Positions 7,306 to 42,188 of a stretch of DNA of 64,000 nucleotides are shown here, piece after piece. Within the stretch, counting starts at the first letter, position 1. Each line of letters opens with the position of its first letter. Source of the DNA: a phage; assembly GCA_024614665.1 (NCBI GenBank), contig GCA_024614665.1_4861.1. One strand, written 5' to 3'. Position numbers and translations under genes: made by a program. The notes beneath the pieces are model-generated. The model saw only the letters and a list, made by a program, of their open reading frames with translations. It searched no databases and was not told the DNA's origin.

Positions 7306-7308
7306 TTT

Positions 7309-8112
7309 TTACCAGCTCCTTACACCCATGCCCATTACCCGCAGATTGGACACTTTCGGAGCCAGCTGCAGGTATTCCTGCGCGAGTTGCTGGAGAGCAC
7401 CACGACGGGACTCAGTGGCAACAGCGCTGGTCGTTGTCGGATTGTACAGAATGTCTTCCAACACTTGACGACTGATAGGGCGGTCGACGTAAGTGCGAGT
7501 AGATTCCTGTGCCACTTTACTACCGCGTTGAATCGCAGAGTATTTGTTACAGATTTGCAGGCCATCTTCAATAACCCAGTCAAAGGTGACCAGTTTATCG
7601 ATACGGCGTACGATAGTCGTACCCAGACGACCTTCACGAACGATAGCACGCAGTGAGAAACACACGTTCTGATGTGGGTTCTCTAGTGCTTCCGCCAGAA
7701 GCGGACCACGTTCACGGTTAGGTTTAATCCAACCCCAGATTTCCATTACCGGCAGACCGTTACACATCTGGTCGGTCGGCTTCACTTCTACTTCGCGAAT
7801 GTGCATACACACGTTACGCGTTTCGATCCATTCGTTACGTTCGATCCACTGGGCTTCGCTCATGCCTTGTTCGTATTGCGGATGGTCTTCTTCACCGAAG
7901 AGATTCCCCGCCAAAACTTTACGCATGAAAACGTTAGAGCGCTCGAAGACATGTTTTGACTCGTTATAGGCGTAGTAAATATTCTCAGAGTTGAAAATAT
8001 TCAGTGCACCTAACAGGACGTAGTAATACCCGTCCGCATCTTTCTTTAGCGTTGCCCCTTTATTGACCCCAGCGAGTGCCACGCAGTTATAACGTAGTGA
8101 CAAGTTTTCCAT
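7309..8112 (-). CDS. hypothetical protein
   Basis: 267-aa ORF tightly packed in the array downstream of the RNAP genes. Confidence 0.55.
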   Translation of the reverse strand: MENLSLRYNCVALAGVNKGATLKKDADGYYYVLLGALNIFNSENIYYAYNESKHVFERSNVFMRKVLAGNLFGEEDHPQYEQGMSEAQWIERNEWIETRNVCMHIREVEVKPTDQMCNGLPVMEIWGWIKPNRERGPLLAEALENPHQNVCFSLRAIVREGRLGTTIVRRIDKLVTFDWVIEDGLQICNKYSAIQRGSKVAQESTRTYVDRPISRQVLEDILYNPTTTSAVATESRRGALQQLAQEYLQLAPKVSNLRVMGMGVRSW

Positions 8113-8174
8113 TGGTTTCCCCAGTTGTTATTACCGAGGCGGGTTATTGGGGACGTACAATAACCCTACCTCAG

Positions 8175-8903
8175 TTACCTCATATACAAATCCTCGAGTG
8201 GCTCTGCACGTACCGGATCGACCTGGAGTGCAGAACGGATACCCTGTTTCAGCTCCACATCTGCAATCTTGGCCAACCTGGAAGTTTTGTTCAATGAACC
8301 TGAACGCAGCGGAATAAACTGCACCCGATTCATCAAATCGCTGTCTTTTTTCAGGGTGTAGCGGAAATACGTCCGCGGGTCGCCAACCTTACGCTGTGTG
8401 TGGGCAGCATAACAGTCAGCGGTGATCTGGTCGTTAAAGACCGTAAAGCCGTTCCACGTCTTAGTGTCAGACAATAGCTCAGCGTCATCTACTGCGGTAT
8501 ACCAGAAAGGCCGGTTGCCGAAGTCGTAGATGTACGAAGCGATGTTGTAGACTGGCGAGGATAGCACTTGCAGCATTCGGTTGGGGAACACCACCGTGCC
8601 GGGGTCAAAACGGAACTCGTAATACGGCACACCCTGAACATCAATTTCCTCAAACGCCGACGGGGTAATTTCAATGAACGTCGTGACGTTCGATACCCCG
8701 TAGGTTTTGCGGTCAGTGGAGATAGCGAAAATACCGACGATTTCTACTTGCGAAGAAATTACCGCCAGCTCTTTAGCCACGAAGCCAACAGGGATGTAAA
8801 TGTAACATCCCCCTTTGGTGATGGTGGCCGTGCCTTGGTCCACTAAATCTGCATGAATTTTCGTCGCGTCACGACGTGCTGTTTCAATGGCGCTCACGAC
8901 CAC
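8175..8903 (-). CDS. hypothetical protein
   Basis: 242-aa ORF, GTG start with AGAGAGG SD. Confidence 0.5.
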   Translation of the reverse strand: MVVSAIETARRDATKIHADLVDQGTATITKGGCYIYIPVGFVAKELAVISSQVEIVGIFAISTDRKTYGVSNVTTFIEITPSAFEEIDVQGVPYYEFRFDPGTVVFPNRMLQVLSSPVYNIASYIYDFGNRPFWYTAVDDAELLSDTKTWNGFTVFNDQITADCYAAHTQRKVGDPRTYFRYTLKKDSDLMNRVQFIPLRSGSLNKTSRLAKIADVELKQGIRSALQVDPVRAEPLEDLYMR

Positions 8904-8912
8904 CTCTCTTTA

Positions 8913-10388
8913 TTAAACTTTGCTCGGTACAGAAATAACCACACCGCCACAAATCCAATCCAGAACGTAGTTAATCATCCAGTCGGTCGCTACCTCGTCA
9001 GGTTGACGGTTAGCAATCATACCACGATGAATATCCAGCATCAGCTTGGACAGCTCGTACTCACCAAAGACTTCGGTTGCTGAGACTTTGATAACGAACT
9101 CTGTGATGTCGGTGGTGTCGGTGGTGAAGAACTCGTCGATGAAGCTCGCCGTCGAACGCTTAATGAGTTCTGGCGTTGCTACCTGACCGTCTTCTCCACG
9201 CCAGAACAGTTCAGGATCGGTTGCATCGATGGCCACGTTAAACGCTTGTTTCAGTGACTGGCGATTGCGTGTTACCCAATTGCTATCGAGCTTAGCACGC
9301 TGAATCGCGGAACGGTGGCTCCAGGCAGCGATGTAGTCTTTCTGTTTTTCCAACAGTGAAGCTACACGCGTGGAGACATTGGTGTCACCTTCGTCCAGTT
9401 GGTAAATAGCGCCCAGTAACGCTTCAACGCTACCGCCTTTTTCCAGATAGTCATCCATAACTTCCTGGCAGATATACACTTTCTTCTCAACGTTGTCGTA
9501 TCCGAAGACAATGTTACCGGTCTTGATGCGGGTAACGATGTTCTGGGTGTAGGCGTAAACCCAGCCGATATAGCTGTAATGCAATGGCAGCATCTGTGCT
9601 TTCCACTGCCCGCTATTCAGACCAGAGTCTTTCCACGGCATTTCCAGGTAGTAGCCAGAAAGCAGCATAAACAGAATGTTGCGTTTCAGGTTGTGTGGTG
9701 CCTGGTCGCTTACCGGAGAGAGCATGTTCCCTTCGAGCATGGTGCGAACGGCTTCGTTGATGCTCCAACCCAGAGCATTCAGCAGTTCTTTAACCAGATC
9801 GTCGTAAGCTTTGCTGCCGGTTTCTGGCAGTTCGATATCAGCAGGGACGTTAGCTTTAACCGCGGGATGTGTGGTACCGTTACCCAGCGGGTTCTCTACC
9901 GAATCAATTAATGCTTGTACCACCGGGGAGTTCAACGCCGGGTCCATACCTGCCGGTACGAGTGCCCACTCTTCGCTAACTGCCTGGTTTTCAATACCCT
10001 GGTTGTTTTGGATGACCAGCTGAACAAACGGCTGAATAACGTTACGGGCAAAGTCAAGCATACCCTGACAACGCTGGATGGCCATGCGCTTCAGTTCAAA
10101 CAGCGTTGGTTCGTGGTCTTCGACGTTCAGCGTTTCTGGACCCGCTGCCGTATCCGCGATTACAGACGCTTCGCCCGTGCCAGCTTGCGGCGTTTTCAGT
10201 GCAGTGATATCCGGCAGAGACTGGAAGAACTCTTCGTCAGTTATCTGCGTATCGAAAACGCTCTGCTGCGTAGTCGCTTTTGTCAGTAGACCAACAGGAC
10301 TGTCAACGTCAGCTTCCAAACGAATCTGGTGTTGTTTCGCCAGTTTCATTGCGTTGGTGACAGCATTAAGTGAATATAAGTTGATCAT
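8913..10388 (-). CDS. hypothetical protein (possibly virion-associated)
   Basis: 491-aa ORF; overlaps the upstream gene stop by 4 nt (coupled). Confidence 0.55.
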   Translation of the reverse strand: MINLYSLNAVTNAMKLAKQHQIRLEADVDSPVGLLTKATTQQSVFDTQITDEEFFQSLPDITALKTPQAGTGEASVIADTAAGPETLNVEDHEPTLFELKRMAIQRCQGMLDFARNVIQPFVQLVIQNNQGIENQAVSEEWALVPAGMDPALNSPVVQALIDSVENPLGNGTTHPAVKANVPADIELPETGSKAYDDLVKELLNALGWSINEAVRTMLEGNMLSPVSDQAPHNLKRNILFMLLSGYYLEMPWKDSGLNSGQWKAQMLPLHYSYIGWVYAYTQNIVTRIKTGNIVFGYDNVEKKVYICQEVMDDYLEKGGSVEALLGAIYQLDEGDTNVSTRVASLLEKQKDYIAAWSHRSAIQRAKLDSNWVTRNRQSLKQAFNVAIDATDPELFWRGEDGQVATPELIKRSTASFIDEFFTTDTTDITEFVIKVSATEVFGEYELSKLMLDIHRGMIANRQPDEVATDWMINYVLDWICGGVVISVPSKV

Positions 10389-10678
10389 GCCTGACCCCCG
10401 TTTTTGGTGCTGATGGAATCCTGGATGCGACCAGTAATGCGCGCACCCACCATATCAGCGATGTCTCGTTTCAGCAAACGCTGATCGCCCATGCGGTCAG
10501 ACAGGCCATTGCTGCCCTTCAGCAGTCCGTGAATAATTTCGGTGGCCAATTCAACCGCATTGCCCAGAACAACAAAGTTCATGCGTTGCTGTGGGGAATA
10601 ACCTTCCGTTTCCGGATTCGTGCTATTACGACCCACCGGAATCCCATGCTGCTGCTTGAGCGTATCTAAAATTCCCAT
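10385..10678 (-). CDS. hypothetical protein
   Basis: 97-aa ORF with GGAG SD; preceded by a GC-rich hairpin. Confidence 0.5.
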   Translation of the reverse strand: MGILDTLKQQHGIPVGRNSTNPETEGYSPQQRMNFVVLGNAVELATEIIHGLLKGSNGLSDRMGDQRLLKRDIADMVGARITGRIQDSISTKNGGQA

Positions 10679-10725
10679 TATTAACTCCGGAGTTTATTTA
10701 CCGGGCGGGAGCGACCCGCCCTACA

Positions 10726-13700
10726 TTAGTTGATTTTAGCCGGCAAGGCTGGGACGTCTTCACCATCTAAGATGCGTCCGATGTTCTCCCCACCACGATA
10801 CCCGACAGCGTTGGTGGTTCCGATGCGCATGATAGAACCTACGATACGTGCGTCGACGGAATCACGACCAAAGATAATGTCGAGTTCCTGCCCGTCTTCC
10901 GTTTTGTTGGTTCCATACATCACTTCCTGAACCGTCGTTTTCAGCTGGTTAGCAATAACCATCTTATCCGCTGCTGCCATCTCTACCCGGTGTGTGATGT
11001 AGAATCGGACACACAGGCTATTGTACGCTAACGGCACCCCCTCAACACGAAAATCACCGTTGACTCGACCGTCCTTCGGCTCGTCACGTTTGAGAGCCAG
11101 CGCAGTCTTCCGACGTATACGGTCGTATTTACGAACCATCTCCGCCAAAGACGGGGTCATATCTTCCAACTCGCCGTGGTAAACCACTTCGATTTTGTCG
11201 ATAAACCCACGAACACCAGAGCGTGGTGCAAAGGAGCTTAACTCACGCAGCGTCTCCGCTGCTTCTTTACTGAACCCGCTCATATCGCCAGTCAGGTTGT
11301 CGGTGAAGGTGCATAGAATTGAATCCACGTCTACGTGGTCCCCTTCTTTTACCATCTCCAACAGGTTCTGGGTGAATGTCATTGTGACTTCTTTGAGTTT
11401 GGTAACATCGGCTTCGGCCTTAGCAGCGAACCGCTCACTAATGGCGTTGGAGTCCTCAATTACTTCTTCCCCTTCAATCAAAGCGACAGTTGCCAGTATC
11501 CCGTTTTTAAAACTGACCTGCGTTGGATCATAGATGTCTGGTTCAAAGTGTTGTTCGTTGTACGTGATAACGGCACCGGCAGGGAGTTTATCTCCGCGCT
11601 TCCATTTCGTTACCAGGGTGTGTGGGTAGTAAGTCCCTTCGTGCGGACCGAACCAACGACCCAGTGGGAAAGCTTCTTCCTCCCCGTCGTCGTATTTGAT
11701 TTTAACGTGGTCGTTAAGAACCTCCACAATCTTGCCAGGTTTATCGATTACGCGTGCGTGCTTCACAGAAGTACGGTGTGCCACGAACTTTTCTTGCTCG
11801 GTACGATACGGTGTGGTGGTTGCGCCAACACAACTGGTCGCAGAACCGAATTGAATCCCAACGAAGTTCTGACGCTTAGCATCGTCCATCAGGGTATCCG
11901 GCACCAAGCCATCAATAAACGACAGCGCCTCACCCGGCTTCAGTTTATCGAGGTCCTTTTTAAAGGTCGTGCCGTCCACGGTATCGTAGCGCGGGTTGTT
12001 TGTTGCAAAGGCGGTGATACCTACGTCGCCGTTATCGACCGTGTTACCGGAGACAATCCCCAGGTCGCTCGGTTGGAATTCACGGGTACTGTAGACCATG
12101 GTTTTGCGGTTACGACCGCCTGTACCGCCCATGGTAACGACATCCTTTTCTTTGATGTTCTGTACCGGGTTTGCGCCAGGTGCCAGCAAAACAGACGGGT
12201 CGGAGTTAATTGCACCCCACACCATGTCCTGTGTCAGCTCAAACTTACGATTCGAGTTAGGCGCGTTGTTGTAGTTACGCATCGCCCGCACCATCGCGGT
12301 GTAGATGTGATACGAAATACGTTGGTTCCCGATGAACATCATTTCGTCACCGTTAATTTCCGGTAACGTGTGGTCCGTCTGCAGCAGTTCGTTAGAACGC
12401 TCCAGTAAGCCGATAAAGGTTTCCGGCTCGCCCATTTTCCTGAGGATACGCGCGTGCATGTCGTCAACAAATGCGGTCCGCATCAGCTTCAGCTCTTTGA
12501 TGTAGCGTGGTGTTAGCCCATCTGCATCGCGTAACAGGTTCAGGTAAATGTCTTCCCGGTCAACTTCCGACTCGGTATACGTGGTAAAGTGTTTAATGTA
12601 ACGGTCTAAGCCGTTGACAATCATCCTCTGTTGATCGTTCTCGCAGACAATTGCAATTTTCGCATCCTGGAGACGAATAATGGAGTCGAACTGACCTTTA
12701 TCGATACGTTGTCCGACAGAGAGAACCTCGTAACTGATACCGAAGTGTTTCAACATCCCGGTTAATCCGAGATAGTACGCAAACACAAAGCCCAGCGAGA
12801 TTGATTTACCCATCAGTGACAATTCAGTCATTTCACGTGGAGCCTTAGCGGTGTCCACGCCAAAGACTTCGGCGAGTGTACCCAGTGGTTCGGTCTTATC
12901 CTTATCCACTCGATAGAGCTGGGAGTTTTTATCCATACCGACGATGACATGACTCCGCGGTTTCTTCGCCACAGGTACCAGCTCGACACGGTCCGCATCT
13001 GCCAGTTGCCCTTCGTTAAAGAATACCGCTTTCTGTTTAATGTCAAAGTTCCATTGGTACCCAATTGCGTTGAACGTTGCTACACGACGCGCTACTTCGG
13101 TATATTGGCGCGGCAGTTTAGACAGCGGATCGAACACATTCGCCAGTTTTGCATCAGTGATTTCGGTGTTCTTTGGATCGACTGCACGAGTAATAATCGC
13201 GTTAGTGAGCCAACGTCCGTAATCATTGACGACTTTATCGCTGCGACGGACAAAGTTCTTCCCGTAGGCAGTGGTTAACGCTACAGTATCGTGGGACACT
13301 TTACGGATAGGAACATCGACGCGCTGACGACGCATTGTATATTCCACACCATTTGCAACCCAAGTACCGTCTTCGGTTAATGCAGGAATTGAGAAACGTA
13401 CCGTGGTTGGTTCTCCGCCAATCGGCTGAATACGCAACGTGTGGTGTTCGATATTCCCGGTAACGGAAATCTCTTTCTCAACAGTGTGATTGTGAATCGC
13501 CAAACCGAGACGCTGAGATGACGCCACTGCACCCAGAACATCTTTCGGGAAGATTTCCTGGTTGTACTGACGAATGATTTGGTCGGTGGTATTTTCCGCC
13601 CAGGCTTCATCCGTAACTAAGCGTTCAATCTTCTTAGGCTCGGCTTTAACTTCGAGTTTCTTCGGATCAATGGTCAGACCTTCGCCGTACGTCTCTTTAG

Positions 13701-14931
13701 GATTGTACGGGTTGGGTAAGTTTACGAAACGTTTAGAAGATTCGTTCAGGAACTGATACGCTTTGGCGGTGACGCGGCCCGCTTCTGCCAGACGCTCAAC
13801 TTCCTGTTTAATCACAGCATCGTGTGGGATGGTGCGTTCTACGACGATGGTGGTTGGTTTGACATCTTCTTTCGGCGCTTCGATGACCAGATCTTCTTTC
13901 TCATCGAACTCATGATCGTTCAATGTGTCGTCGGCGTTGTCGCTTTGTGTTGCTTCATCGTCGACGATATCGAGGGTTTCTTCCGGTTTACTGGCAACGG
14001 TATCAACAGCATCGTCGTCCTCACCCAGATGTACGCGTTCGTCCCCTTCCGGTGTAACGAACTCGTCATCTTCGTAGTCGGTAGACGGCGGTGTGGTCAT
14101 CACAGTAGTCAGTGTACGGTAGAACATTCTGCCCATCTGCACGTCAGTCAAACGACCACCGGCAGACTTACGCATTCTTTCAATTACACCCATGTTCATG
14201 GATGTAAAACCACCGTTGTGCGTGAAGATAAAGTTCACACGTGACAGCTGGTTCATGTCCATACCGTCAAACAGGGTTGCTTGCTGATCGCCGTAAGCCC
14301 AACCGAACAGTTCCAGTAACCACAGGAGATTAAAGTCCTTAAAGCGCTCCAGTTTGGTTTTAACACGATCGTTATACGTCGTTTTAAAACGATCGAAAGA
14401 AGGCAGTACGTTACCCAGTTCGATGATGTAGTAGTTCTGACGCATGTACTCACGTGAGTCAGTTTTCATCTGGTTAGTTATCAGCAGCTGAATGTTGTGC
14501 AGACGTTCGTACCAGGACATCAGAGTATCAGGGTAGAAATAATGCGGCAGCATCGGGGTGTAGTTTTCGATGAGCAGCACTTTTGGATCGGAACGTACCA
14601 CGCCGTCTTCAATCATGCGACGAATACGACGGTTGTTACGATGGTACTGGAAGATTTGACGTTCTTGGCCAACAACCGGTTTCTTACGCGGATGGCCGAT
14701 AATGCCGTCTTCAGGCAGCTGGAAGTGGTGGCGAATCATCGCCGGTTTTTCCAGCTGGCCAAAACACGGTGTAGTTAACGGCGGCGCTAAAACCACCTGG
14801 TCTAAATCGATGGTGTGGTAGATAGAACCACGTGGGAGCTGGAGCTTCTCCAGCGGGATAATACGCGGGCGACCGAACTCATCGGTCTTGCGCACGGTAA
14901 AGCGCTGGTTAAACTGTTTCAGAAAAATCAT
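10726..14931 (-). CDS. large subunit of a phage multisubunit RNA polymerase (beta or beta'-like, divergent)
   Basis: 1401 aa directly downstream of, and co-oriented with, the beta'-like N-terminal subunit gene. Contains VDDMHAR and a later GDEMMF segment loosely resembling bacterial beta C-terminal motifs, plus a long acidic insertion. Assignment is mainly contextual. Confidence 0.45.
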   Translation of the reverse strand: MIFLKQFNQRFTVRKTDEFGRPRIIPLEKLQLPRGSIYHTIDLDQVVLAPPLTTPCFGQLEKPAMIRHHFQLPEDGIIGHPRKKPVVGQERQIFQYHRNNRRIRRMIEDGVVRSDPKVLLIENYTPMLPHYFYPDTLMSWYERLHNIQLLITNQMKTDSREYMRQNYYIIELGNVLPSFDRFKTTYNDRVKTKLERFKDFNLLWLLELFGWAYGDQQATLFDGMDMNQLSRVNFIFTHNGGFTSMNMGVIERMRKSAGGRLTDVQMGRMFYRTLTTVMTTPPSTDYEDDEFVTPEGDERVHLGEDDDAVDTVASKPEETLDIVDDEATQSDNADDTLNDHEFDEKEDLVIEAPKEDVKPTTIVVERTIPHDAVIKQEVERLAEAGRVTAKAYQFLNESSKRFVNLPNPYNPKETYGEGLTIDPKKLEVKAEPKKIERLVTDEAWAENTTDQIIRQYNQEIFPKDVLGAVASSQRLGLAIHNHTVEKEISVTGNIEHHTLRIQPIGGEPTTVRFSIPALTEDGTWVANGVEYTMRRQRVDVPIRKVSHDTVALTTAYGKNFVRRSDKVVNDYGRWLTNAIITRAVDPKNTEITDAKLANVFDPLSKLPRQYTEVARRVATFNAIGYQWNFDIKQKAVFFNEGQLADADRVELVPVAKKPRSHVIVGMDKNSQLYRVDKDKTEPLGTLAEVFGVDTAKAPREMTELSLMGKSISLGFVFAYYLGLTGMLKHFGISYEVLSVGQRIDKGQFDSIIRLQDAKIAIVCENDQQRMIVNGLDRYIKHFTTYTESEVDREDIYLNLLRDADGLTPRYIKELKLMRTAFVDDMHARILRKMGEPETFIGLLERSNELLQTDHTLPEINGDEMMFIGNQRISYHIYTAMVRAMRNYNNAPNSNRKFELTQDMVWGAINSDPSVLLAPGANPVQNIKEKDVVTMGGTGGRNRKTMVYSTREFQPSDLGIVSGNTVDNGDVGITAFATNNPRYDTVDGTTFKKDLDKLKPGEALSFIDGLVPDTLMDDAKRQNFVGIQFGSATSCVGATTTPYRTEQEKFVAHRTSVKHARVIDKPGKIVEVLNDHVKIKYDDGEEEAFPLGRWFGPHEGTYYPHTLVTKWKRGDKLPAGAVITYNEQHFEPDIYDPTQVSFKNGILATVALIEGEEVIEDSNAISERFAAKAEADVTKLKEVTMTFTQNLLEMVKEGDHVDVDSILCTFTDNLTGDMSGFSKEAAETLRELSSFAPRSGVRGFIDKIEVVYHGELEDMTPSLAEMVRKYDRIRRKTALALKRDEPKDGRVNGDFRVEGVPLAYNSLCVRFYITHRVEMAAADKMVIANQLKTTVQEVMYGTNKTEDGQELDIIFGRDSVDARIVGSIMRIGTTNAVGYRGGENIGRILDGEDVPALPAKIN

Positions 14932-14949
14932 ACATGTGCCTTATGGGTA

Positions 14950-16563
14950 TCATTTCAACAGCGCAGCAGTCGTTCTTTTAATCACGTTGTTAACCGGATT
15001 GATTTTGAAACTGCCGTCTGTTGCAAACCAGTAGTTTTTCGAACTGACCCACTTCCGATTTTCCTCGAGCGCTTCGGTTGACATCGGGCAGTTTGCTGAG
15101 CCGGTGTCACCATCGTAGTCACCACCCAATCCACCTAATCGGGATGGATGTGGTGCCATGGATTCCACAAAGGTTTTCACGGTACGGTCAGGGAAGCTAA
15201 TTGCACCCTTCTCTTTTAACGTGACCCAATCGTCTTCCAGTTCATGCAAATAGAGGGAAGAGGTGGTGGTCTCCAATCTTATGGTCGAGGAGTAAGTCGA
15301 ACCGCGTCCCGTAACCGGATAACGCGTGATGAACGAGAAGTAGTCATTCCAAATATCGTAACCTGACAAATAGAGGAGTTCTGCTAAGCTCAGTCCGCGG
15401 ACAAGCTTACGGTCACGTCCTTCCGGCAGGTCTTCAATATCGTAAAAGATTTTGAAGCTGCGTTTGTCCTGGTAGATTAATGCCACGTAATGGTCCGGAT
15501 CAATCATCAGCGGTTTATGTCGAAGCTCGCGCGCTTCCATTCTGTTGATGAGTGTTTCGATGCCATCGTCGGTAGTGAAAAGGTCATACACCCGCCCGGA
15601 GACTTCCAGGAACTCACGCTTGAGTGTTTTGGTGTTAACGCCGTATAAGTTGCCGTCCCCTGCCCGGATGTTACTGAGGTAACGTTCACGGATGTGGTAT
15701 TGAGCCACAGGCAGTAATGCCTTCAGGGTTTGGTACAAACCGATACGGGTATCCGTTGGACGAATCGCATCTTCGCGACCCATGACCTTGGAACCGGTTG
15801 AGAATGAAGACAGTACGTTACGCGTACCGTTCATTAACTTACGTGACGTCACTTTACGACGTGCAAAACCACCTTTACCGTCTTGGATGTTGAAAAAGTA
15901 CATCCAGATGTCATTAAAGGTTTGTTGGAGCTTCCAGCGAACCGGGTCAGTCAGTTCCGTTCGCGTACTGCGGTCGGGGATTGCACGTGCCAGAGAAATC
16001 AGACGGCGGTAGAGTCCGCCAATCTCTTCTTCTTGGTCGCGGCCATCCTGACGAATGACCAAATCACGTAATCCCGCAGGCAGAACCAGCACATAGCGGC
16101 TGAGACTGACCGGACGGAACTTATTGAAGAAATCGACTGTCTCGTCGCGACGCATTGATTCGTTGCGTCCTGGCGTCAGTTGTTCGTAGTAGCGTAGGAA
16201 GAAGTTGAAGCCGGTGTCTGCACCTTTATCACTGGGCAGAGCCGGCTCGAAATCTTTTTCTTTCTCATTCCAGATAGCGAATCGCTTCCCGGAACAGATT
16301 TCTTCGTACAGCTGTTTCAGCTGGAACAGTGCCAAACAAACGGTCGGCGAAATGATATCCAGTTTGATATCAATGTACGAGAACGTTGAGTCTCGTGCCT
16401 CGCTCCCTGTGAGGCCAAATATTTCAGTTGAATACAGTCCTTCAGGGTGAAAGTTTTTCGTCAGTCCCTGAAAGGTGTCTGTTGTTGTAACTGGTTTTAA
16501 ATGCGACACCAGGGACTTGTTGACGTTTAACAGGTAAAAGTCAACCCAGTTTAGCTTTCTCAC
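14950..16563 (-). CDS. multisubunit RNA polymerase beta'-like subunit, N-terminal fragment type
   Basis: 537 aa. YVLVLPAGLRDLVIRQDG...LYRRLI parallels the bacterial beta' segment LPVLPPDLRPLVPLDGGRF...LYRRVI; MAPHPSRLGG followed by DYDGD parallels NRAPTLHRLG ... NADFDGD (catalytic Mg-binding aspartates). GTG start with AGGAG SD. Confidence 0.6.
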   Translation of the reverse strand: MRKLNWVDFYLLNVNKSLVSHLKPVTTTDTFQGLTKNFHPEGLYSTEIFGLTGSEARDSTFSYIDIKLDIISPTVCLALFQLKQLYEEICSGKRFAIWNEKEKDFEPALPSDKGADTGFNFFLRYYEQLTPGRNESMRRDETVDFFNKFRPVSLSRYVLVLPAGLRDLVIRQDGRDQEEEIGGLYRRLISLARAIPDRSTRTELTDPVRWKLQQTFNDIWMYFFNIQDGKGGFARRKVTSRKLMNGTRNVLSSFSTGSKVMGREDAIRPTDTRIGLYQTLKALLPVAQYHIRERYLSNIRAGDGNLYGVNTKTLKREFLEVSGRVYDLFTTDDGIETLINRMEARELRHKPLMIDPDHYVALIYQDKRSFKIFYDIEDLPEGRDRKLVRGLSLAELLYLSGYDIWNDYFSFITRYPVTGRGSTYSSTIRLETTTSSLYLHELEDDWVTLKEKGAISFPDRTVKTFVESMAPHPSRLGGLGGDYDGDTGSANCPMSTEALEENRKWVSSKNYWFATDGSFKINPVNNVIKRTTAALLK

Positions 16564-16592
16564 TTTTAAGCTCCTGAATTGGAAGAAACATT

Positions 16593-19500
16593 ATGGCAAA
16601 AAGAGGCAAAGACGGTTTCGATGATATCGACTTAGATAGACTCGATGACTGGGATGATTTCGGTGAACCACCCCGTCCCAAAGACGAGAAAAAACGAAGC
16701 CCGATACTTAGTACCCTGAATGTTGCCAGGAAGTCGGCGTTGTCAACTATCTGGCCAGAAGGGAAACGCGACCAAGTTATCCTCAAGGGGATGCCTAAGC
16801 CGGCAGCTGATGCATACGAGGGCTATCAGTCAGCGGCAGCTGCAGCAAAGGATATTTACGCCCATACGAAAGGGGAGCTTGAGAAGACCGAGCGCACGCT
16901 GAAGATGCAAGCGCGCCAACTCGGTCCGACGATGAAGAAATACTTGCCTGATGCGGTTACTAAGCGCATCGACAAGTGGTCAAAATCTGACCAGTTGGAT
17001 TACCAAAATTACGATCCTAATCAGGCGTTGATGGATCGTGAACTGGGCGACGTTTTCTCAGGTGTGCCAAAGGACGCCGAAGAACAACGTCAGCTGCAGG
17101 ACAGCATGGTAGAGGATAAGCTCCGCGACAGCATCAAAGAGATGCGTGCGGATGCAATGCACCAAACCATGATTGGGATGGCGAAAGACATTAACCTGCT
17201 AACCGGGTTAAGCCGCGGGGTATTCTTAAACATCGAGCGTAAGAAACTCGAACTGCAATACCGTACCCTGTTTGCCATCCAAGACATCGTGAAGATGAAG
17301 CAGTCGGAGTTCGATCGTAATACGCCTGCTTTAGAAGCCATCGTGAAGAACACGGCATTGCCGGATTACGCGAAGGAAGATTTCTCAGAAGTCCGTTGGG
17401 CGAACGTTAAACGCCAGGCTGCGGAATGGATGAACCCGTTGCGGTATGCTGACGGGTTTATGGACATGATTCGCGAAAATACCAAGAAGAAAATTTCTGG
17501 TATATTTGGCGAAGGTCGCGGTTTGTTAGAATCTGTTCTCGGCATGGGCGTTGAAGATGATTTCGGCATGAGCGACAGCTCTTCGTTGACTGCTGAACGT
17601 CGCAAAACAAATGCTCGCGATAAAGCAACTGCATGGGGTAGCGGATTCCTTGCGAAGAAACTACTCGGTCCACAAATCGAGAAACTCCAGAAATGGACTC
17701 GCGAGGAGATGGAGAAAAATCCAGAGGTCATGAAACGCCTGCAGAAGGGCGCGTTCACCTTTGGTAATCTTTCCTCCATCTCGAACTCAGCCATCGCAGG
17801 CGAAACGCAAGGACCGTTGGCGGATTTGTTCCGGGTGCTGAATGAACTCGGTATTGTCCAACCGTTAAACCGTGAGAAAGCCTTCCTTGACGAACGTAAT
17901 GGCGAAACGTTAAGCCGTTCGGCGAAATTTGACCGTAAAGCATATCTTAGCCTGGTTGAAGTTATTCCTGCCTGGCTGGCAGAGATTAACAAATCTGTTC
18001 GTCGGGGTTATGGCGAACATGCCGACCTGGAATACGACATCACTAGTCGTGGGTTCGTAGACCGTAAAGTGGTCGGTAACCGCGTACGCAAGGCGGTTGC
18101 AAACGATGAACAACGCCTGCGTCTCCAAAATTCCATTAACAGCACTGTGGATTTTGTTGACCGCGGCAAAACGCTCTCGCAGAAGGATCGACAGCATCTC
18201 GCCGACTATATCGAGTCGCGAGCCTCGCAGGGCCGCGCATTCGACGTAGAAGCGATTCTGAAAGACCCGATGCATCTTCATCGGTATATGCCAGGAAACT
18301 CCGCAGAACGCATTAAGGAAGCCTTACAGGGGCATTCTGATAGCCTAACCGGTGGTAGTAACGAATTAAGTAACGAACTGGCTCGTAAAATCTCCACAGT
18401 ACAATCGTCTATCACCCAGCGTCAGGCAGTTATTGACGAAGCGGTGAACATTTACGGCGAACGTGCGCTGCGTGATGCAGGTATATTCAACTACGACGCA
18501 AAGAGTGACACCTTCGGCGTAGATAAAGACCTCTCCGATCCCTACACCTTGTTTAATGACTTGGCGATGGGTAAGACACGCAGTGGTCGTGCACTGACTC
18601 GTGACCAGGAGATTCAACGTAAACTGCAAAACGGTTCAGCGTTAGGCGACTACTTGCGCCGGATGAACCAAGGGGCAAATGGTGGTGTCGATGACACGTC
18701 GTTGCCGCCGGCTTTACGTGGCGGTGGTAAAGGCCGCGGAATGTCGCCTCGGCAGTTAGCCGCAGTTCTCTACGGTGAAACCTCGACTAACTTTGTTGAA
18801 TTGTTGAGTCAACGTAACCGCGGCGAAGAAGCACCACGGAATAACTTTGACGGCATCATCGAAGCGATTCGGGGTAATAACAACAGTGACACCCTCCAGA
18901 AAATTCTGGAACACGTCAGAAGTATGGACGAAGAAGGGGTTCTCCTGGCTTCGTTAGCAGGGGGTGCTGGTTCTGGTGACGAAGAGATGGGACCACCTCG
19001 TCCTGGTGGTGGTAGCGGTGGCGGTAAACGCCGCCGTATTATCATCGGTGAGGATGGGCTTATTCGTCGTTGGGGCGGTGTGTTGTTCGACACTGCAGCA
19101 GGAATCGGTGGCTTTGCAAAACGTGGTGTTAAAGGTGCCTGGAATAAACTGAATCAGTTCGGTGGCTGGGCACGCGGTAAAATCGCAGGGATGGGCGGCG
19201 GAGAAGGTCCTGGTTTCTTAACCCGGATGCGTGGCCTTATCAGCGGTAGTGTCCGTGGGGGCTTTGAAGCGGTAAGTTCCTTCGGTAAAGGACTACTGGG
19301 TATCCGCGACATTTACGATGACCACGGTAATGTTGTTCTGCAAGGTGCACGTCTGGAAGCTGGAGAATACTACCAGGTCATTGATGGTAAAATGGTTCAG
19401 CTGAAAACGCTGGACGACATCAAACTGGGGAGTGATATTGTTGACTCCGCAGGTAATCTGGTATTAGCAGCCGCTGACTTAGCCGCTGCGGGTAAACTCC

Positions 19501-22500
19501 GCTACTATAAAGGCGGGAAAATCCAAGCACTGACCCAAGGTCTGGCCAGTAAGATTGGCTTAGGCTTTAATAAAGTGGCTAAGCTACCGAAACGGTTCCT
19601 GGATTTCCTGTCGCCAAAAGCGGGCAGCATCGTTGGTAAGATTAAGGACTGGCTGAACGAGATTCCGGAAGGCGAAGAAAAGACACGTCTCCAGAAAGCG
19701 TTCAACCGCGTAACGAGCTTACCGGGTAAAGTGCTCGGTTTTGCGAAACGTGGTGTCGACCGTCTGAAAGACATGATTACCGACAACCCACTGACGCGTT
19801 GGTGGAAAGGCCGTAAAGATGGTGGGGGAGGTGGTTTCAGTCTCTTCTCATCGACCGGCAAGAAAACCAACCACATTCTTATCCGTATCTACAAACTGTT
19901 GAACCAACGTTTACCGGGTGATCCGGAAGACGAAAGTTGGACAGAAGAAATGGAGAAGGGTGTCGGTGGCGGTGGTAGTACGATCGGCCGTGCAGTTCGC
20001 GGGGCGTATAATCGTGCGAAAGCGTCATTGTCTGAACGTTTTGGTGGACGTTGGTCAAGAACAAAAGCGTTCTTTGGTCGTGGACGTGACCGCCTGCGTG
20101 GTTGGTTCAGTGGTTTCCGAGGCCGGGCTGGGGATATGCTCGATGGATATCGTGGAGCACGACACGACATTGCTACACGTTACGAAGTTGAACGTCGGTT
20201 GGCTGGACGTGATGATGATGTTGCTGAGTTTTATCGCAGTCATTTGAACGCGAAAGGTGGCCTTTCTGGCCGTAAAGTCTACGGTGATGCGAAGGAAGAC
20301 CTTGAGACCGCCCGTGATGCAGCAGGGAGAGTTATTAACAAAGGGAAGAATGCTGCCAAGTCTGCAGGTGCAAGATTGTTTGAACGCTTGGACCGAATGA
20401 TTGGCTTGCAAGAGATGTCGTGGTTTAACACCATGCGCGAATCAGTATCCCGTGCAGGTGGTGACGATGGCATTATTCGTACCATGTTTGCGAAGTTCGG
20501 TAAACGTAACAAGCCGCCTGAAGGTGATGAAAAACGCGACTACTTTAACTTCTTCAAACGTTGGCGTGAGAAACGTAAGGAGAAGAAAGAGAAAGCGCAG
20601 GGCTCCAAAGGGAAATCTGGCGGTCTGTGGGATATGGTGAAAGGCTTACCTATCATCGGTCCCATCGTCAGTATCTTGGGAACTGTGGGTAATATACTCG
20701 GTTCTATCACGAAATGGGGTGTGTTAAAACCCGTAGGCCTTTTAGGGAAGGCTGCGTGGAATGTTGGTAAGTTCGCAGTAACCCGCTTGGCGGCACCCGC
20801 GGTGTCCGCTGTGGCAACTGCGGCATCTGCCGTCGTGACCGCGGTGGGTTGGCCGGCAATTCTCATCGGTGGTGCGATCGCCGCGGCAGGTTACGCCGCG
20901 TACAAAATCGCAACGACTACCTATACCCAGTACCTGGATAAGATGCGTTTAGCTCAGTACGGTTTCCGTGATTACGATAAGTGGTCGTCGGACGACGGGG
21001 CGAAAGCGCGTTACTTAGAAGACGCATTGCGTGAGTATGTGTCTTACGCGGAAGATGGCCAAGCCAGTCTCCGTGGGCTAAGTGGAAAAGACGTTCAGAA
21101 GTTAGCTGAAGGATTCGGTATCAACGTTGAGGAAAAAGGCGAGATGTTGGCCTTCCAAGCGTTTATGCTTCAGCGCTTCATTCCGATTTATCTCCGTTGG
21201 ATTACGGCACTGAAATCAATGCCGAACAGTATCCAGTTGGCTGACGTCGGCGATGCGAAGAAAGTATCGAAAGAGGACATGCAGACACTCTTCAACAAAA
21301 TGAAGATGACTAAGGATGCAAAAGCGTTCTCTTCGTTAACTGACCCACGCAAAGTCAACCAAGGTTTCTTCTCGAAAGCTTGGGACGTTGTAACCTTTAC
21401 ACCGAAGGAGTTTTTGAGCGGTGAAGAGGTTATGGAAGTGCAGAATGAAGTCGAGCGTGCGATCAAGTTCAGAATGGACGATAAGAAAGCACGTAAGTAC
21501 GGAATGGCACCGGCCGTGGAGGGGATTAAATCCGCTGGCGTTGATGAAGCTATCAACAAACTCGGACAGCTGGATAACGAACGTAACAAAAATCTGGCGA
21601 AGGTAGAAGGTTGGGAAGACGGAACAGAGCAGGTTCAGATTCAGGTAGACTGGAATGCGGTGCTCGACCAGAAAGACATGAATGCGATGGAGTCGGTACG
21701 TTGGAAGACTTATGGTTTTACCACCATCGATAACGCCACTCGCACCATGATCACGGTATTCGAGAAGAACGTCATTAAGGACATTGACGTGAAAACCGCA
21801 AGCTACAAAGGAGATTGGAAGAAAGCAATCGCCTCGATGGTTCCAGACGCTATCGGTACACCGAAAGAAGATCGTTTGAAACGGTGGTTCTTTGACCGTT
21901 TCTTACCGGTATTCATGACGTATTTGGTTGGGGTGAAGCGTTACCTGCCAACAGCCGATCCGCTGAACTTGAAACTGACCGGCGGCTACCTGTACGAAAT
22001 CAGTCTGATGATGTCAACAGCCTACAGCTTGAAAGGCGGTATAAGACAGTCGGTGTGGGAAGTGAATATCAACCCATTAGGGGGTGAGGCTAACACGAAC
22101 CCATCGTCCATCAAAGCCGAACTGGAAACGCTGAAGCTGCTGTCAAAAGAAGCTGACCTTGCCGTGCGTAACATGATCAAAGCCATTAAAAATAATGGCA
22201 AGCGTGCACGCTGGAAGGATCGTAACAAGAACCGCAGTTCTCTGGAAGTCACCGGTGAAGATGATGAAGACTCGAACATCAGTTCGGGAGATTCTTTGTC
22301 ATCCGACGGTGCTCGCGCCTCAGGTTATATCCCAACGGGTACAAGCGGTGGCGTACCGGGTAACTTAGGCCAAGTCGTCGATGCGGTTGGTGGTGTGCGG
22401 AACTACGCTGCAATGACCACGGGTTCGTCTTCGATTAACCTGAGTGATGTGAAAGACGGTGATTATAAGTCACTGGCTGAAAAATACCCGATAGAAATGT

Positions 22501-23714
22501 TGGGTAGAAAGGGTGCGTTGAACGTTCCAAATATCAAAGCACTGATTACCGATGCAGCGAACATGATGGGCGTGCCACCTGCAGTGGCGTTAGCAATGGC
22601 TAAGGCGGAGTCTGGATTTAACTACACCGCTAAAAACCCGTATGCTTCGGCGTCTGGGTTGTTCCAGTTTGTTAACGGTACGTGGGACGGGATGATGAAG
22701 GGGTATTCGCGGAAGTTCGGTATTCCGCGTGTTAACCAGATGGACCCGTGGGCGAATGCTATATTGGGTGTACAGTTCATTCGTGACAACATCCAACAAG
22801 CACAACGTGACCTGGGTGGTAAAGCACCACCTCCAGCCGTGGCTTATTTGTATCACTTCCTGGGTGCAGGCGGCGGTAAGAAATTCCTGGAAGCATGGAA
22901 GCGTAATCCGAATATGGCGGCATCAAGTGCTCCTGGGATTACATCTGCAATACTGAGAGGGAATGCCAACGTCTTCTACAGCAACGGTCGTATACGTAGC
23001 GTAGACGGGGTTATTCAGGAACTGAACCGCCGCATGGGCGCAATTTCCGCCAACGAAGTCGCTGCCGATCCGAGTAAGACGAAGGATATGGTTGCAGGCT
23101 TGTCGCCTAATTCACCAACCAACCCGGCAGCAGCAATGGGTGCACCGGCCGCTAATGATCCGAGTCTGTCGCCAGCAGATAACCTGCCGGCAGATAATGC
23201 TAATCGTCGTGATGACGCATTGACGCAGAAAGGGGCCATGGCGGCACAAGATGCAATGGCTACCGCCGCAGGTAATGTAGGACCAGCAGCACCTACACCA
23301 ACTACAGGTGGTTCCGGAACATCCGATGCCTCAACAACAGCCGAAACCGTAGCGTCGCAAGCTGCAGCAGAAGGATTGTCTGCAACGGATGTTGCTAAAG
23401 TGAAAGCAGGCGCGGAAGCGCAGGTTAACGCAGCAGCTCGTCCAGTTGCCGCTCCAACTTCTGATGCTACAGCATCGACGCCAACGCTGAATGGTGACCC
23501 GATAGATGTTCAGCAGCTCAAGGTACTGATTCAGTCTCGCGATTACTTGAAAGAGATTCGTGATATTTTGAAATCAAATCCGAGAGCAGCAAACGACACG
23601 CGTGGTGGTAGTATCCAGCAAGCGGCAAATGTGGCTCCTCCGGGCTCAGCTGCACGCAGGCAGGAAATAACCCAACCGACACCGTCGTTAAACGTAAGTC
23701 GGAAAGCAAGCTAA
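16593..23714 (+). CDS. giant virion protein with C-terminal lytic transglycosylase (SLT) domain, tape-measure or cell-puncturing type
   Basis: 2373-aa ORF. SLT signature AKAESGFNY...SASGLFQF...GTWDG near aa 2000; hydrophobic transmembrane-like segment near aa 1350-1440; Gly/Arg-rich repeats (GFAKRGV twice); Ala/Pro/Thr-rich C-terminal region. Confidence 0.75.
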   Translation: MAKRGKDGFDDIDLDRLDDWDDFGEPPRPKDEKKRSPILSTLNVARKSALSTIWPEGKRDQVILKGMPKPAADAYEGYQSAAAAAKDIYAHTKGELEKTERTLKMQARQLGPTMKKYLPDAVTKRIDKWSKSDQLDYQNYDPNQALMDRELGDVFSGVPKDAEEQRQLQDSMVEDKLRDSIKEMRADAMHQTMIGMAKDINLLTGLSRGVFLNIERKKLELQYRTLFAIQDIVKMKQSEFDRNTPALEAIVKNTALPDYAKEDFSEVRWANVKRQAAEWMNPLRYADGFMDMIRENTKKKISGIFGEGRGLLESVLGMGVEDDFGMSDSSSLTAERRKTNARDKATAWGSGFLAKKLLGPQIEKLQKWTREEMEKNPEVMKRLQKGAFTFGNLSSISNSAIAGETQGPLADLFRVLNELGIVQPLNREKAFLDERNGETLSRSAKFDRKAYLSLVEVIPAWLAEINKSVRRGYGEHADLEYDITSRGFVDRKVVGNRVRKAVANDEQRLRLQNSINSTVDFVDRGKTLSQKDRQHLADYIESRASQGRAFDVEAILKDPMHLHRYMPGNSAERIKEALQGHSDSLTGGSNELSNELARKISTVQSSITQRQAVIDEAVNIYGERALRDAGIFNYDAKSDTFGVDKDLSDPYTLFNDLAMGKTRSGRALTRDQEIQRKLQNGSALGDYLRRMNQGANGGVDDTSLPPALRGGGKGRGMSPRQLAAVLYGETSTNFVELLSQRNRGEEAPRNNFDGIIEAIRGNNNSDTLQKILEHVRSMDEEGVLLASLAGGAGSGDEEMGPPRPGGGSGGGKRRRIIIGEDGLIRRWGGVLFDTAAGIGGFAKRGVKGAWNKLNQFGGWARGKIAGMGGGEGPGFLTRMRGLISGSVRGGFEAVSSFGKGLLGIRDIYDDHGNVVLQGARLEAGEYYQVIDGKMVQLKTLDDIKLGSDIVDSAGNLVLAAADLAAAGKLRYYKGGKIQALTQGLASKIGLGFNKVAKLPKRFLDFLSPKAGSIVGKIKDWLNEIPEGEEKTRLQKAFNRVTSLPGKVLGFAKRGVDRLKDMITDNPLTRWWKGRKDGGGGGFSLFSSTGKKTNHILIRIYKLLNQRLPGDPEDESWTEEMEKGVGGGGSTIGRAVRGAYNRAKASLSERFGGRWSRTKAFFGRGRDRLRGWFSGFRGRAGDMLDGYRGARHDIATRYEVERRLAGRDDDVAEFYRSHLNAKGGLSGRKVYGDAKEDLETARDAAGRVINKGKNAAKSAGARLFERLDRMIGLQEMSWFNTMRESVSRAGGDDGIIRTMFAKFGKRNKPPEGDEKRDYFNFFKRWREKRKEKKEKAQGSKGKSGGLWDMVKGLPIIGPIVSILGTVGNILGSITKWGVLKPVGLLGKAAWNVGKFAVTRLAAPAVSAVATAASAVVTAVGWPAILIGGAIAAAGYAAYKIATTTYTQYLDKMRLAQYGFRDYDKWSSDDGAKARYLEDALREYVSYAEDGQASLRGLSGKDVQKLAEGFGINVEEKGEMLAFQAFMLQRFIPIYLRWITALKSMPNSIQLADVGDAKKVSKEDMQTLFNKMKMTKDAKAFSSLTDPRKVNQGFFSKAWDVVTFTPKEFLSGEEVMEVQNEVERAIKFRMDDKKARKYGMAPAVEGIKSAGVDEAINKLGQLDNERNKNLAKVEGWEDGTEQVQIQVDWNAVLDQKDMNAMESVRWKTYGFTTIDNATRTMITVFEKNVIKDIDVKTASYKGDWKKAIASMVPDAIGTPKEDRLKRWFFDRFLPVFMTYLVGVKRYLPTADPLNLKLTGGYLYEISLMMSTAYSLKGGIRQSVWEVNINPLGGEANTNPSSIKAELETLKLLSKEADLAVRNMIKAIKNNGKRARWKDRNKNRSSLEVTGEDDEDSNISSGDSLSSDGARASGYIPTGTSGGVPGNLGQVVDAVGGVRNYAAMTTGSSSINLSDVKDGDYKSLAEKYPIEMLGRKGALNVPNIKALITDAANMMGVPPAVALAMAKAESGFNYTAKNPYASASGLFQFVNGTWDGMMKGYSRKFGIPRVNQMDPWANAILGVQFIRDNIQQAQRDLGGKAPPPAVAYLYHFLGAGGGKKFLEAWKRNPNMAASSAPGITSAILRGNANVFYSNGRIRSVDGVIQELNRRMGAISANEVAADPSKTKDMVAGLSPNSPTNPAAAMGAPAANDPSLSPADNLPADNANRRDDALTQKGAMAAQDAMATAAGNVGPAAPTPTTGGSGTSDASTTAETVASQAAAEGLSATDVAKVKAGAEAQVNAAARPVAAPTSDATASTPTLNGDPIDVQQLKVLIQSRDYLKEIRDILKSNPRAANDTRGGSIQQAANVAPPGSAARRQEITQPTPSLNVSRKAS

Positions 23715-23723
23715 TCGTAGGGG

Positions 23724-25985: not shown

Positions 25986-26007
25986 TATACCATAGAGGTA
26001 GTGCGTT

Positions 26008-26559: not shown

Positions 26560-26577
26560 CAAAAAAATAAGTAATGC

Positions 26578-26615
26578 GAGTACCCCTAACGGGGTACTCG
26601 TTTGCTTTTATTTTT
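26578..26615. terminator. bidirectional intrinsic terminator
   Basis: Hairpin GAGTACCCC TAAC GGGGTACTC then GTTTGCTTTTATTTTT; A7 run on the other side serves the convergent minus gene. Confidence 0.7.
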
Positions 26616-27968: not shown

Positions 27969-28004
27969 ACAAAAAAATAAGTAGGGTGTCCATATGGACA
28001 CCCT
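27969..28004 (-). terminator. intrinsic terminator
   Basis: Perfect hairpin AGGGTGTCC ATAT GGACACCCT followed on the minus strand by ACTTATTTTTTTGTT; the same flanking sequence as at 26560-26580. Confidence 0.65.
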
Positions 28005-28014
28005 AATACGTATT

Positions 28015-37818: not shown

Positions 37819-38494
37819 ACAGCGCAGTGTCCTTTACGTCAGTACCGACGTATTGGGCAAGAAAACGGGTGGACTCCTTAAAGGGGTTCACCTTATCTCT
37901 TTTTATTTGCGCGATTGCTTCTTCCGTTAATTCGCTGGTCAGCATACTCGGTCGGGTAATCGTAAAATCCGGAATCGGTTTCTGGAAATGGCTCGCGTGT
38001 TGTTCTATCCACGGATACCAATCGTACATTATCCAACCATCCCATGCAGAAGCAAGTCGTCCTGGTGTAAGATCGCTGTGAGGAATAACAACGACGTCTA
38101 CTTGCACTTCGTTGTAGTAGTAGCGCAGTTCTTCCAAAAACGCATGACGTTCTTCATCATCGAGATCGGCGTATGGCCACAGGTTAAACGTTAAGACAGG
38201 TCGCTCGATAGGAGCGTGCATCTGTATCGTCATTAACATTGCCTGTACTTCGTTCTTTAGCGTAAGCAACATTTCTGTTGGCTGCGCGTTCTGCAACGCG
38301 CGTTTATCACGCTCCGCGAACTTTTTATTCCAGTCCTGAATTCCTACCACTTCGGCCCACGCATCCGTGAACCGCATCCGATACACTTCTAAATCAAGCT
38401 TCTCTAATACATCAGGCTGCAACACTTTCGCCCAACCAATTCGTGTATCGAAGATTGTGTCGATATCGACTAAGAAACGGCGTCCTAATCTCAT
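37766..38494 (-). CDS. hypothetical protein
   Basis: 242-aa ORF; 3' end overlaps the convergent plus gene by about 50 nt. Confidence 0.45.
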   Translation of the reverse strand: MRLGRRFLVDIDTIFDTRIGWAKVLQPDVLEKLDLEVYRMRFTDAWAEVVGIQDWNKKFAERDKRALQNAQPTEMLLTLKNEVQAMLMTIQMHAPIERPVLTFNLWPYADLDDEERHAFLEELRYYYNEVQVDVVVIPHSDLTPGRLASAWDGWIMYDWYPWIEQHASHFQKPIPDFTITRPSMLTSELTEEAIAQIKRDKVNPFKESTRFLAQYVGTDVKDTALFSLRRHQQDDDSQTQMP

Positions 38495-39159
38495 TCCGGG
38501 CGTCCTAAGTTGTTACCGATGTGCATTGCTTTAAAGTACGAAGACCATGTACGCGGTGCTTTTGAACTGGTCCGCTCAGCCCCTTCCAGGTTGATGCGAC
38601 CTTTACCGGTTTGCCGTAGCGATTGATAGAACGCACGTTGTAACGTATCGTTACCACCACGCGCCCACAGGAACTCCTGGAGCGTTGAGTCGTGTCCATC
38701 CGAGTACATGATGTACGCTTCTGGAAACGAAACACCTGAAGCTTTGGAAGGCCCTACTACCTGACCTGAGAGTTTATCGCGGACTTTATCGTTCTTCGCC
38801 ACCGCCATTTTCTTCTCTTGCATCTGCGTCTGGCGACGTGCAGGTAAACGGAAGACTAAATGGGGGTAACGGGTACGCTGCAGGATACCGGTTTTCGGTT
38901 CCGTGAGCCACAGGCGCTGACACAAGTTCAGTCCCATCGCTTCGCAAATTTTAATATTGCGCATATGGTCAATTTTGACCTTGCCACCAGTTGGGTTGTA
39001 AACAGGCAACCCTTCGCGCAGACGATTGAACTCTTCGTCAGACATTCGCGAGAAAGCGCGCTTGGCAGCTTCCGCGTTAATCCCGGTCGGGTCAACTAAG
39101 TTCAGTAACTGTAAAGCATAAGCTTCTGCTTTTTTTCGCCGTGCCGGGTCTAATCTCAT
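38491..39159 (-). CDS. hypothetical protein
   Basis: 222-aa ORF. Confidence 0.5.
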   Translation of the reverse strand: MRLDPARRKKAEAYALQLLNLVDPTGINAEAAKRAFSRMSDEEFNRLREGLPVYNPTGGKVKIDHMRNIKICEAMGLNLCQRLWLTEPKTGILQRTRYPHLVFRLPARRQTQMQEKKMAVAKNDKVRDKLSGQVVGPSKASGVSFPEAYIMYSDGHDSTLQEFLWARGGNDTLQRAFYQSLRQTGKGRINLEGAERTSSKAPRTWSSYFKAMHIGNNLGRPE

Positions 39160-42146: not shown

Positions 42147-42188
42147 CCTCCCACCTACCGTAACTGGTAGGTGGGAGGGTTTTATTTT
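42147..42188. terminator. bidirectional intrinsic terminator
   Basis: Long stem CCTCCCACCTACC / GGTAGGTGGGAGG then GTTTTATTTT; A-rich run on the other side. Confidence 0.7.

Follow-up and report, generated by a model that had tools for sequence, protein, structure and literature searches.

Genes for two subunits of a probable virion-packaged RNA polymerase, divergent from a tape-measure gene, in an SPN3US-type jumbo phage

Infection by the jumbo phage phiKZ is reportedly independent of the host RNA polymerase (RNAP), a finding attributed to Ceyssens in 2014. The virion-packaged multisubunit RNAP (vRNAP) of the Salmonella phage SPN3US has been examined genetically in previous work from Thomas et al. 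2016 (PMC5105663) and Ali et al. 2017 (PMC5694885). The SPN3US vRNAP set, which comprises gp240 and gp241 together with gp244, gp218 and gp42, was detected in full in the virion head, gp240 and gp241 were shown to be essential, and amber mutants in gp241, gp218 or gp244 were non-viable, with all five subunits gone from their particles (PMC5105663, PMC5694885). SPN3US gp218 is likewise essential, and its packaging depends on the other subunits as theirs does on it (PMC5694885). In phiKZ, mCherry-tagged gp180 co-immunoprecipitates gp178, gp80 and gp149, with ~10 copies packaged per virion, and the tagged protein is cytoplasmic, not nuclear (PMC10612078). Here we describe a pair of open reading frames (ORFs) at positions 10726-16563 of a 64,000-nt stretch of phage DNA (GCA_024614665.1, contig GCA_024614665.1_4861.1; hereafter the window). 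We conclude, with a probability of about 0.96, that this gene pair specifies two of the five vRNAP polypeptides in a Chimalliviridae jumbo phage of the SPN3US type. The gp240/gp241 vRNAP genes are already published and genetically tested in SPN3US, and the finding is in this respect already known.

A megablast search with 10726-16563 matched 63 phage records, among them SEGD1, Proteus phage 7 and Salmonella phage SPN3US (99.2% DNA identity over 100% of the 5.8-kb query), and NCBI taxonomy assigns the SPN3US genus, Seoulvirus, to the Chimalliviridae. An initial annotation of this DNA, made from its letters alone, had described a 537-aa and a 1401-aa ORF lying divergently to a giant ORF, and our ORF scan reproduced these coordinates, sizes and layout exactly. 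The two ORFs of the pair lie on the minus strand, separated by a gap of 18 nt (14932-14949). The giant 2373-aa ORF (16593-23714) lies on the plus strand, and its ATG and the GTG start of the 537-aa gene are 29 bp apart. The corresponding SPN3US locus tags are SPN3US_0240 for the 537-aa ORF, SPN3US_0241 for the 1401-aa ORF and SPN3US_0239 for the giant ORF.

The genes, their order and their strands are the same in SPN3US (Thomas et al. 2016, PMC5105663; Ali et al. 2017, PMC5694885), which also has the 29-bp divergent junction and the neighbours gp242 to gp245. PhiKZ shares the split architecture and the gene order (gp181 <-> gp180 ... gp178, gp177.1, gp177, gp176, then the gp175 protease), but differs in having an extra gene, gp179 (1074 nt; phiKZ 13493-14566), between its counterparts of the 537-aa and 1401-aa ORFs. 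Its gp180 has 490 aa against the 537 aa seen here, and phiKZ gp180 and gp178 are both annotated as structural head proteins. The all-round picture is of a vRNAP pair divergent from a giant tape-measure gene with a transglycosylase (SLT) domain and upstream of gp177, gp176 and prohead-protease homologs, and the same neighbourhood is present in phiKZ and five further genera. The proposal of a phiKZ-like vRNAP is supported by this exact phiKZ synteny and by protein identities of 100% and 99.6% to SPN3US gp240 and gp241. Mobile introns and homing endonucleases have been described in jumbo-phage vRNAP genes. Both genes of the window are uninterrupted by either. The features of the pair are as follows.

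14950..16563, minus strand: predicted vRNAP beta'N gene, 537 aa, GTG start; ortholog of SPN3US gp240 and phiKZ gp180
10726..14931, minus strand: predicted vRNAP betaN gene, 1401 aa, ATG start; ortholog of SPN3US gp241 and phiKZ gp178
15106..15120, minus strand: DYDGD codons (residues 482-486 of beta'N), counterpart of the universal NADFDGD catalytic Asp triad
10939..10968, minus strand: DKMVIANQLK codons (residues 1322-1331 of betaN), counterpart of the beta active-site motif GDKxxxRHGNKG
13642..14931, minus strand: N-terminal extension of betaN, residues 1-~430, for which no homolog was detected outside the phage family

The 537-aa protein matches phrog_2986 over its full length (E 3e-238) and is 33.6% identical to phiKZ gp180 over 81% of the protein (E 4e-65). 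The initial annotation had recognised beta' landmarks in it, and all of these are present. VLPAGLRDLVIRQDGRD occurs in the protein, with VLPAGLRD starting at residue 160; beta' region C (VLPAGLRD...LYRRLI) occupies residues 160-189, LYRRLI beginning at residue 184; and APHPSRLG, at residue 470, precedes DYDGD. Only the distance from DG to LYRR had been given incorrectly, as it is 9 residues and not 3. Residues D482, D484, G485 and D486 are invariant across the 27 homologs, with identity down to 37%, that make up a family profile of beta'N (profile A1), and DYDGD aligns with the DFDGD of the plastid and AR9 beta' subunits.

When compared with the PDB, profile A1 matched 78 chains, and all 60 of those listed are beta' or gamma. 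The top match is the AR9 non-virion RNAP (nvRNAP) beta' chain 7s01_d (E 3.4e-13, ~15% identity), and cellular beta' chains follow at E ~1e-9 to 1e-6. An AlphaFold 2 (AF2) model of beta'N (pLDDT 79.8) gave 565 Foldseek matches at E<=1e-3, with every listed top match again beta' or gamma and AR9 7s01_d the best (E 7.9e-15). The profile, the Foldseek comparison and the invariant triad support the 537-aa protein as a beta' N-terminal fragment bearing the catalytic Asp residues, and they support the earlier suggestion that the phage encodes its own multisubunit RNAP. Natural splitting of beta' is known in cyanobacteria and plastids; the cyanobacterial gamma/beta' split falls later than the end of beta'N, which comes ~50 residues past the Asp triad. 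It has only 3 Cys residues, and no N-terminal CxC...CxxC zinc motif was found in it.

Among solved structures, an nvRNAP subunit comes closest to beta'N. This raises the question of whether the pair encodes not the packaged enzyme but the nvRNAP, which acts in late transcription inside the phage nucleus, the more so as jumbo phages of the Chimalliviridae encode two paralogous split RNAPs. The AR9 nvRNAP beta' N-subunit (PDB 7S00/7S01 chain d) does resemble beta'N in being a split fragment that ends shortly after the DxDGD loop. However, AR9 is merely the nearest solved relative, at 15% identity, and its enzyme differs from the vRNAP in being a paralogous, non-virion polymerase of late transcription that recognises uracil-DNA promoters via a fifth subunit. 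Identity and synteny instead give orthology to phiKZ gp180/gp178 and SPN3US gp240/gp241, and those orthologs were detected in virion heads but not in the phage nucleus (PMC5105663, PMC5694885, PMC10612078). The genes also sit within a head/tail structural module, beside prohead protease and tape measure genes. We therefore regard an nvRNAP as very improbable here, and a vRNAP as the identity of the pair. Given the 99-100% protein identity to SPN3US, both proteins are presumably located in the virion in this phage also.

The 1401-aa protein had been left unassigned between beta and beta' as too divergent. It is indeed divergent, to the point of having no Pfam match, but family profile and fold assign it: the protein is beta, not beta'. 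It differs from SPN3US gp241 at 6 of its 1401 residues and matches phrog_3148 over its full length (E 0). With a profile of 24 betaN homologs (profile A2), all 40 of 40 PDB matches were RNAP beta, the best being Thermus beta (E 1e-11), to which the profile aligns in four colinear landmark segments.

Profile A2 504-526, Thermus beta 117-139: PLMTEDGSFIINGADRV
Profile A2 905-971, Thermus beta 396-463: fork, GPGG
Profile A2 980-1108, Thermus beta 530-654: DDANRALMGSN
Profile A2 1294-1350, Thermus beta 822-880: GDKLANRHGNKG

The DKMVIANQLK motif of betaN is aligned within the last of these segments, which holds GDKLANRHGNKG in Thermus, and D1322, K1323, Q1329 and K1331 are invariant across the 24 homologs; over the betaN and beta'N homolog sets, invariance reaches down to 22-37% identity. 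The structure model of betaN covers residues 431-1401 only (AF2; pLDDT 84.4, pTM 0.80). In Foldseek it retrieved bacterial beta chains only, with 442 matches at E<=1e-3 and 8w8o_C as the best (E 1.9e-26). The structure prediction that had been suggested as a check returned beta' chains for the beta'N model and beta chains for betaN 431-1401.

betaN spans the beta N-terminal lobes through the beta double-psi barrel and reaches roughly residue 910 of the 1119 of Thermus beta; it thus corresponds roughly to the N-terminal ~80% of beta plus a phage-specific extension of ~430 aa. Bacterial RpoB and RpoC/RpoC1 share with betaN and beta'N the two-barrel catalytic core and the landmark motifs in the same order, and are matched in Foldseek at E 1e-26 (beta) and 1e-12 (beta') with only 12-14% identity. 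The phage proteins depart from the bacterial enzyme in that both subunits are split, at different sites, and in the ~430-aa extension added to beta. In sequence and model, betaN and beta'N each hold one half of a two-barrel RNAP active centre, and its catalytic residues are conserved.

For residues 1-~430 of betaN, no Pfam or PDB match was found. This extension includes an acidic linker at ~residues 285-355 (nt 13867-14079), with a net charge of -18 over residues 301-350, which is probably disordered. All 6 differences between betaN and SPN3US gp241 fall within residues 184-333 (nt 13930-14382), in the extension and linker, while the RNAP core of betaN and the entire beta'N are unchanged. That the changes are confined to the non-catalytic part points to a loosening of constraint or to diversification there. 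In 201phi2-1 the corresponding N-terminus is cut at TFE-275, and in SPN3US it stays uncleaved (PMC5694885). According to a hypothesis of Thomas 2016, the extension may target the polymerase complex to the head.

Such a large non-RNAP extension could also be read as a sign that the proteins, although derived from an RNAP, are catalytically dead structural or ejection proteins exapted for head assembly. All five subunits do behave as head 'ejection proteins', and several residues of the cellular beta motif (the RH in GDKxxxRHGNKG) are replaced in betaN. Against this, the Asp triad and both active-site lysines are invariant in homologs down to 22-37% identity, and the conserved RNAP regions are all accounted for over the five SPN3US subunits (PMC5105663). 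The essentiality of the genes also disfavours loss of activity, as does the reported independence of phiKZ infection from host RNAP. A dead enzyme thus seems highly unlikely, and we continue to regard the pair as parts of a probably active vRNAP.

Two further ORFs of the window can tentatively be assigned to the remaining subunits, whereas beta'M, which is gp42 in SPN3US, is located outside it.

38491..39159, minus strand: predicted vRNAP betaC gene, 222 aa; ortholog of SPN3US gp218
8175..8903, minus strand: beta'C candidate gene, 242-aa ORF (240 aa as annotated); ortholog of SPN3US gp244 and phiKZ gp176

The betaC ORF matches phrog_3233 (E 9e-94) and, by its orthology to SPN3US gp218, is predicted to supply the beta C-terminus absent from betaN. 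A ten-phage profile of the gp218-like protein (profile A5) aligned with E. coli beta 1158-1310, a stretch just past where betaN stops, and its top 10 PDB matches were all RNAP beta; a single-sequence PDB search of the gp218-like protein gave no RNAP match. There are 325 phage records with a beta'N homolog and 308 with a betaC homolog, and their hosts are distributed in the same way. The beta'C candidate gene, which is three genes downstream of betaN on the same strand and adjoins the prohead protease gene, matches phrog_2926 (E 1e-94), labelled 'virion structural protein', and its assignment follows the two SPN3US studies (PMC5105663, PMC5694885). A family hidden Markov model search of the window found no further beta or beta' paralog beyond betaN and beta'N.

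Several results weigh against the identification of a vRNAP. A Pfam search for the Rpb1 and Rpb2 domains, which had been proposed as a check with their absence as grounds for rejection, matched neither protein to any RNAP family, even at E<=1. Single-sequence phmmer comparison of beta'N with the PDB was marginal (E 0.39, plastid beta'), the alignment falling exactly on the two motifs picked out by the initial annotation, and that of betaN gave no RNAP match, only spurious low-complexity ones. The global TM-scores of the models are modest, at ~0.3 for isolated beta'N and ~0.5 for betaN 431-1401. Of the other subunits, the betaC profile reached E 0.095, which is not significant alone, and the RNAP homology of the beta'C candidate was not reproduced, as no RNAP match was found in a single-sequence PDB search. 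Finally, the copy of the PDB that was searched held no vRNAP structure.

The Pfam failure can be attributed to divergence and not to a lack of homology, since family profiles and fold comparison do match RNAP; one distant homolog (P0117) has a precomputed PF04997 match. Modest TM-scores are expected of multi-domain chains modelled without their partners. Used as a test, Pfam would have given a false negative for this locus. Standard Pfam screening misses betaN and beta'N entirely, and recognition of jumbo-phage RNAPs needs family profiles or structure comparison. The motif-based call on the 537-aa protein was right and can serve as a calibration point, with beta as the partner.

In the mechanism that we propose, beta'N would contribute the beta' double-psi barrel loop, with the three DYDGD aspartates holding the active-site Mg2+, and betaN would contribute the beta lobes, the fork, the beta double-psi barrel and two conserved active-site lysines. 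The missing parts of the polymerase would come from betaC, beta'M (gp42) and the beta'C candidate. Following the literature on SPN3US and phiKZ, the subunits would be produced in mid or late infection, would assemble in the cytoplasm into one complex and would enter the prohead only with all subunits present. Because single mutants lose all five subunits, the published view is that the enzyme assembles first, is then taken up into the prohead and later leaves the particle together with the DNA. Once ejected, the vRNAP would transcribe the early phage genes with no need of the host RNAP or of sigma or alpha subunits. The literature knows of no alpha or omega homologs for these polymerases.

The surroundings of the pair comprise three further features.

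16593..23714, plus strand: giant tail protein gene, 2373 aa; ortholog of SPN3US gp239 and phiKZ gp181
16564..16592: divergent intergenic junction, 29 bp, with both ribosome-binding sites inside
10703..10721, minus strand: GC-rich hairpin past the betaN stop, seen in an alignment of five genera and by RNAalifold

The giant neighbour, 2373 aa against 2372 aa for SPN3US gp239, matches phrog_3201 (E 0). It does contain a transglycosylase domain, as had been anticipated: Pfam SLT (PF01464) matches residues 1984-2072 above the gathering score (E 2e-9). SPN3US gp239 is named as the tape measure and is absent from tailless particles (PMC5105663), and the phiKZ counterpart gp181 (2237 aa) is annotated as a tail-associated endolysin. 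The giant SLT protein is a tape-measure/tail protein and no part of the polymerase.

Within the 29-bp junction, AGGAG stands 7 nt before the GTG of beta'N and GGAAG before the ATG of the giant gene. The junction measures 23-32 bp in five other genera (six in all with the window) but reaches 75 bp in phiKZ; no conserved motif resembling a promoter was seen in it. It is too short for conventional promoters, and those of both transcription units must lie within the opposite coding sequence or be very compact. The phiKZ late-promoter motif is 'TATG', and we considered a promoter of this kind at the start codon of the giant gene, which was rejected since the T is not kept in Asesino or Wellington. 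A promoter embedded in the first 50 nt of the beta'N gene was also considered, as nucleotide conservation is high there. It was rejected because the genera differ there at synonymous third codon positions, a pattern compatible with ordinary constraint at the protein level.

The start of gp240 itself needs comment. Thomas 2016 gives it as 519 aa and 59.6 kDa (PMC5105663), which would correspond to an internal GTG at 16509, whereas the 537-aa product is 61.8 kDa. The GTG at 16563 has AGGAG upstream at a 7-nt spacing, and homologs that are 34-40% identical have kept beta'N residues 8-18. The position of this Shine-Dalgarno (SD) sequence and the conserved residues favour the 537-aa start over the 519-aa one as the predicted start of gp240.

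The hairpin at 10703-10721 (GGGCGGG-TCGCT-CCCGCCC, minus strand) is perfect, begins 4 nt past the betaN stop and lacks a U-tract. Across five genera (SPN3US-like, Asesino, Wellington, Huxley and EarlPhillipIV) the TCGCT loop is invariant, and RNAalifold gave 9 pairs, 4 of them with compensatory changes. After the hairpin comes an invariant TCCGGAGT, which holds the SD of the next gene. The core sequence of the hairpin occurs once in the window. The hairpin may act in termination or processing of the transcript, or may be a site at which proteins of the phage transcription machinery bind. Another perfect hairpin, TAGGGGGTG-GCAA-CACCCCCTA, also without a U-tract, lies at 23718-23739, 4 nt past the stop of the giant gene, so that the divergent genes are bracketed by hairpins. 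This second hairpin is overlapped by the longest ORF of the gp238 homolog (23724-25985, plus strand, 753 aa, GTG at 23724); the gp238 start annotated in SPN3US, ~39 nt further on (740 aa), is the more plausible one.

Over the whole window there are 11 perfect GC-rich hairpins with stems of >=7 bp, against 1-2 in shuffled sequence, the others including 2832-2857, 26577-26600, 27982-28005, 42147-42178, 48895-48918, 51974-51999 and 53503-53524. Most are flanked by T-rich runs on both sides, in the manner of bidirectional intrinsic terminators, and two have CGAA loops, which read as C(UUCG)G tetraloops on the minus strand. A scan of 7000-26500 for sigma-70 promoters and intrinsic terminators gave counts at or below shuffle expectation, and is uninformative because the phage uses its own RNAPs. 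tRNA and Rfam scans found nothing.

One speculative and rather doubtful idea is that the compact junction and the hairpins are dedicated recognition elements for the phage RNAPs or for RNA-processing factors, coordinating the injected polymerase with tape-measure expression. The junction could then be a bidirectional start region and the hairpins termination or stabilisation signals. As far as we have found, the literature holds no description of a compact regulatory architecture around vRNAP genes, and the conserved junction and hairpin provide small testable leads for mapping Chimalliviridae transcription units.

Some observations concern the database records of these genes. Several SPFM Salmonella phage records (LR535911-LR535917) match the vRNAP genes only in 4-8 short pieces, at 20-95% coverage, and the proteins annotated in them are fragments. 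This points to assemblies rich in frameshifts and not to real gene disruption. Records filed under Salmonella enterica isolate assemblies also include the exact beta'N protein and betaN proteins that are nearly identical. The beta'N cluster carries the name 'hypothetical protein DEI58_00075 [serovar Enteritidis]', with a longest contig of ~241.7 kb, and 717 sequences belong to a related betaN cluster. Complete jumbo-phage genomes seem to be picked up when bacterial isolates are sequenced, perhaps owing to a carrier state or to contamination.

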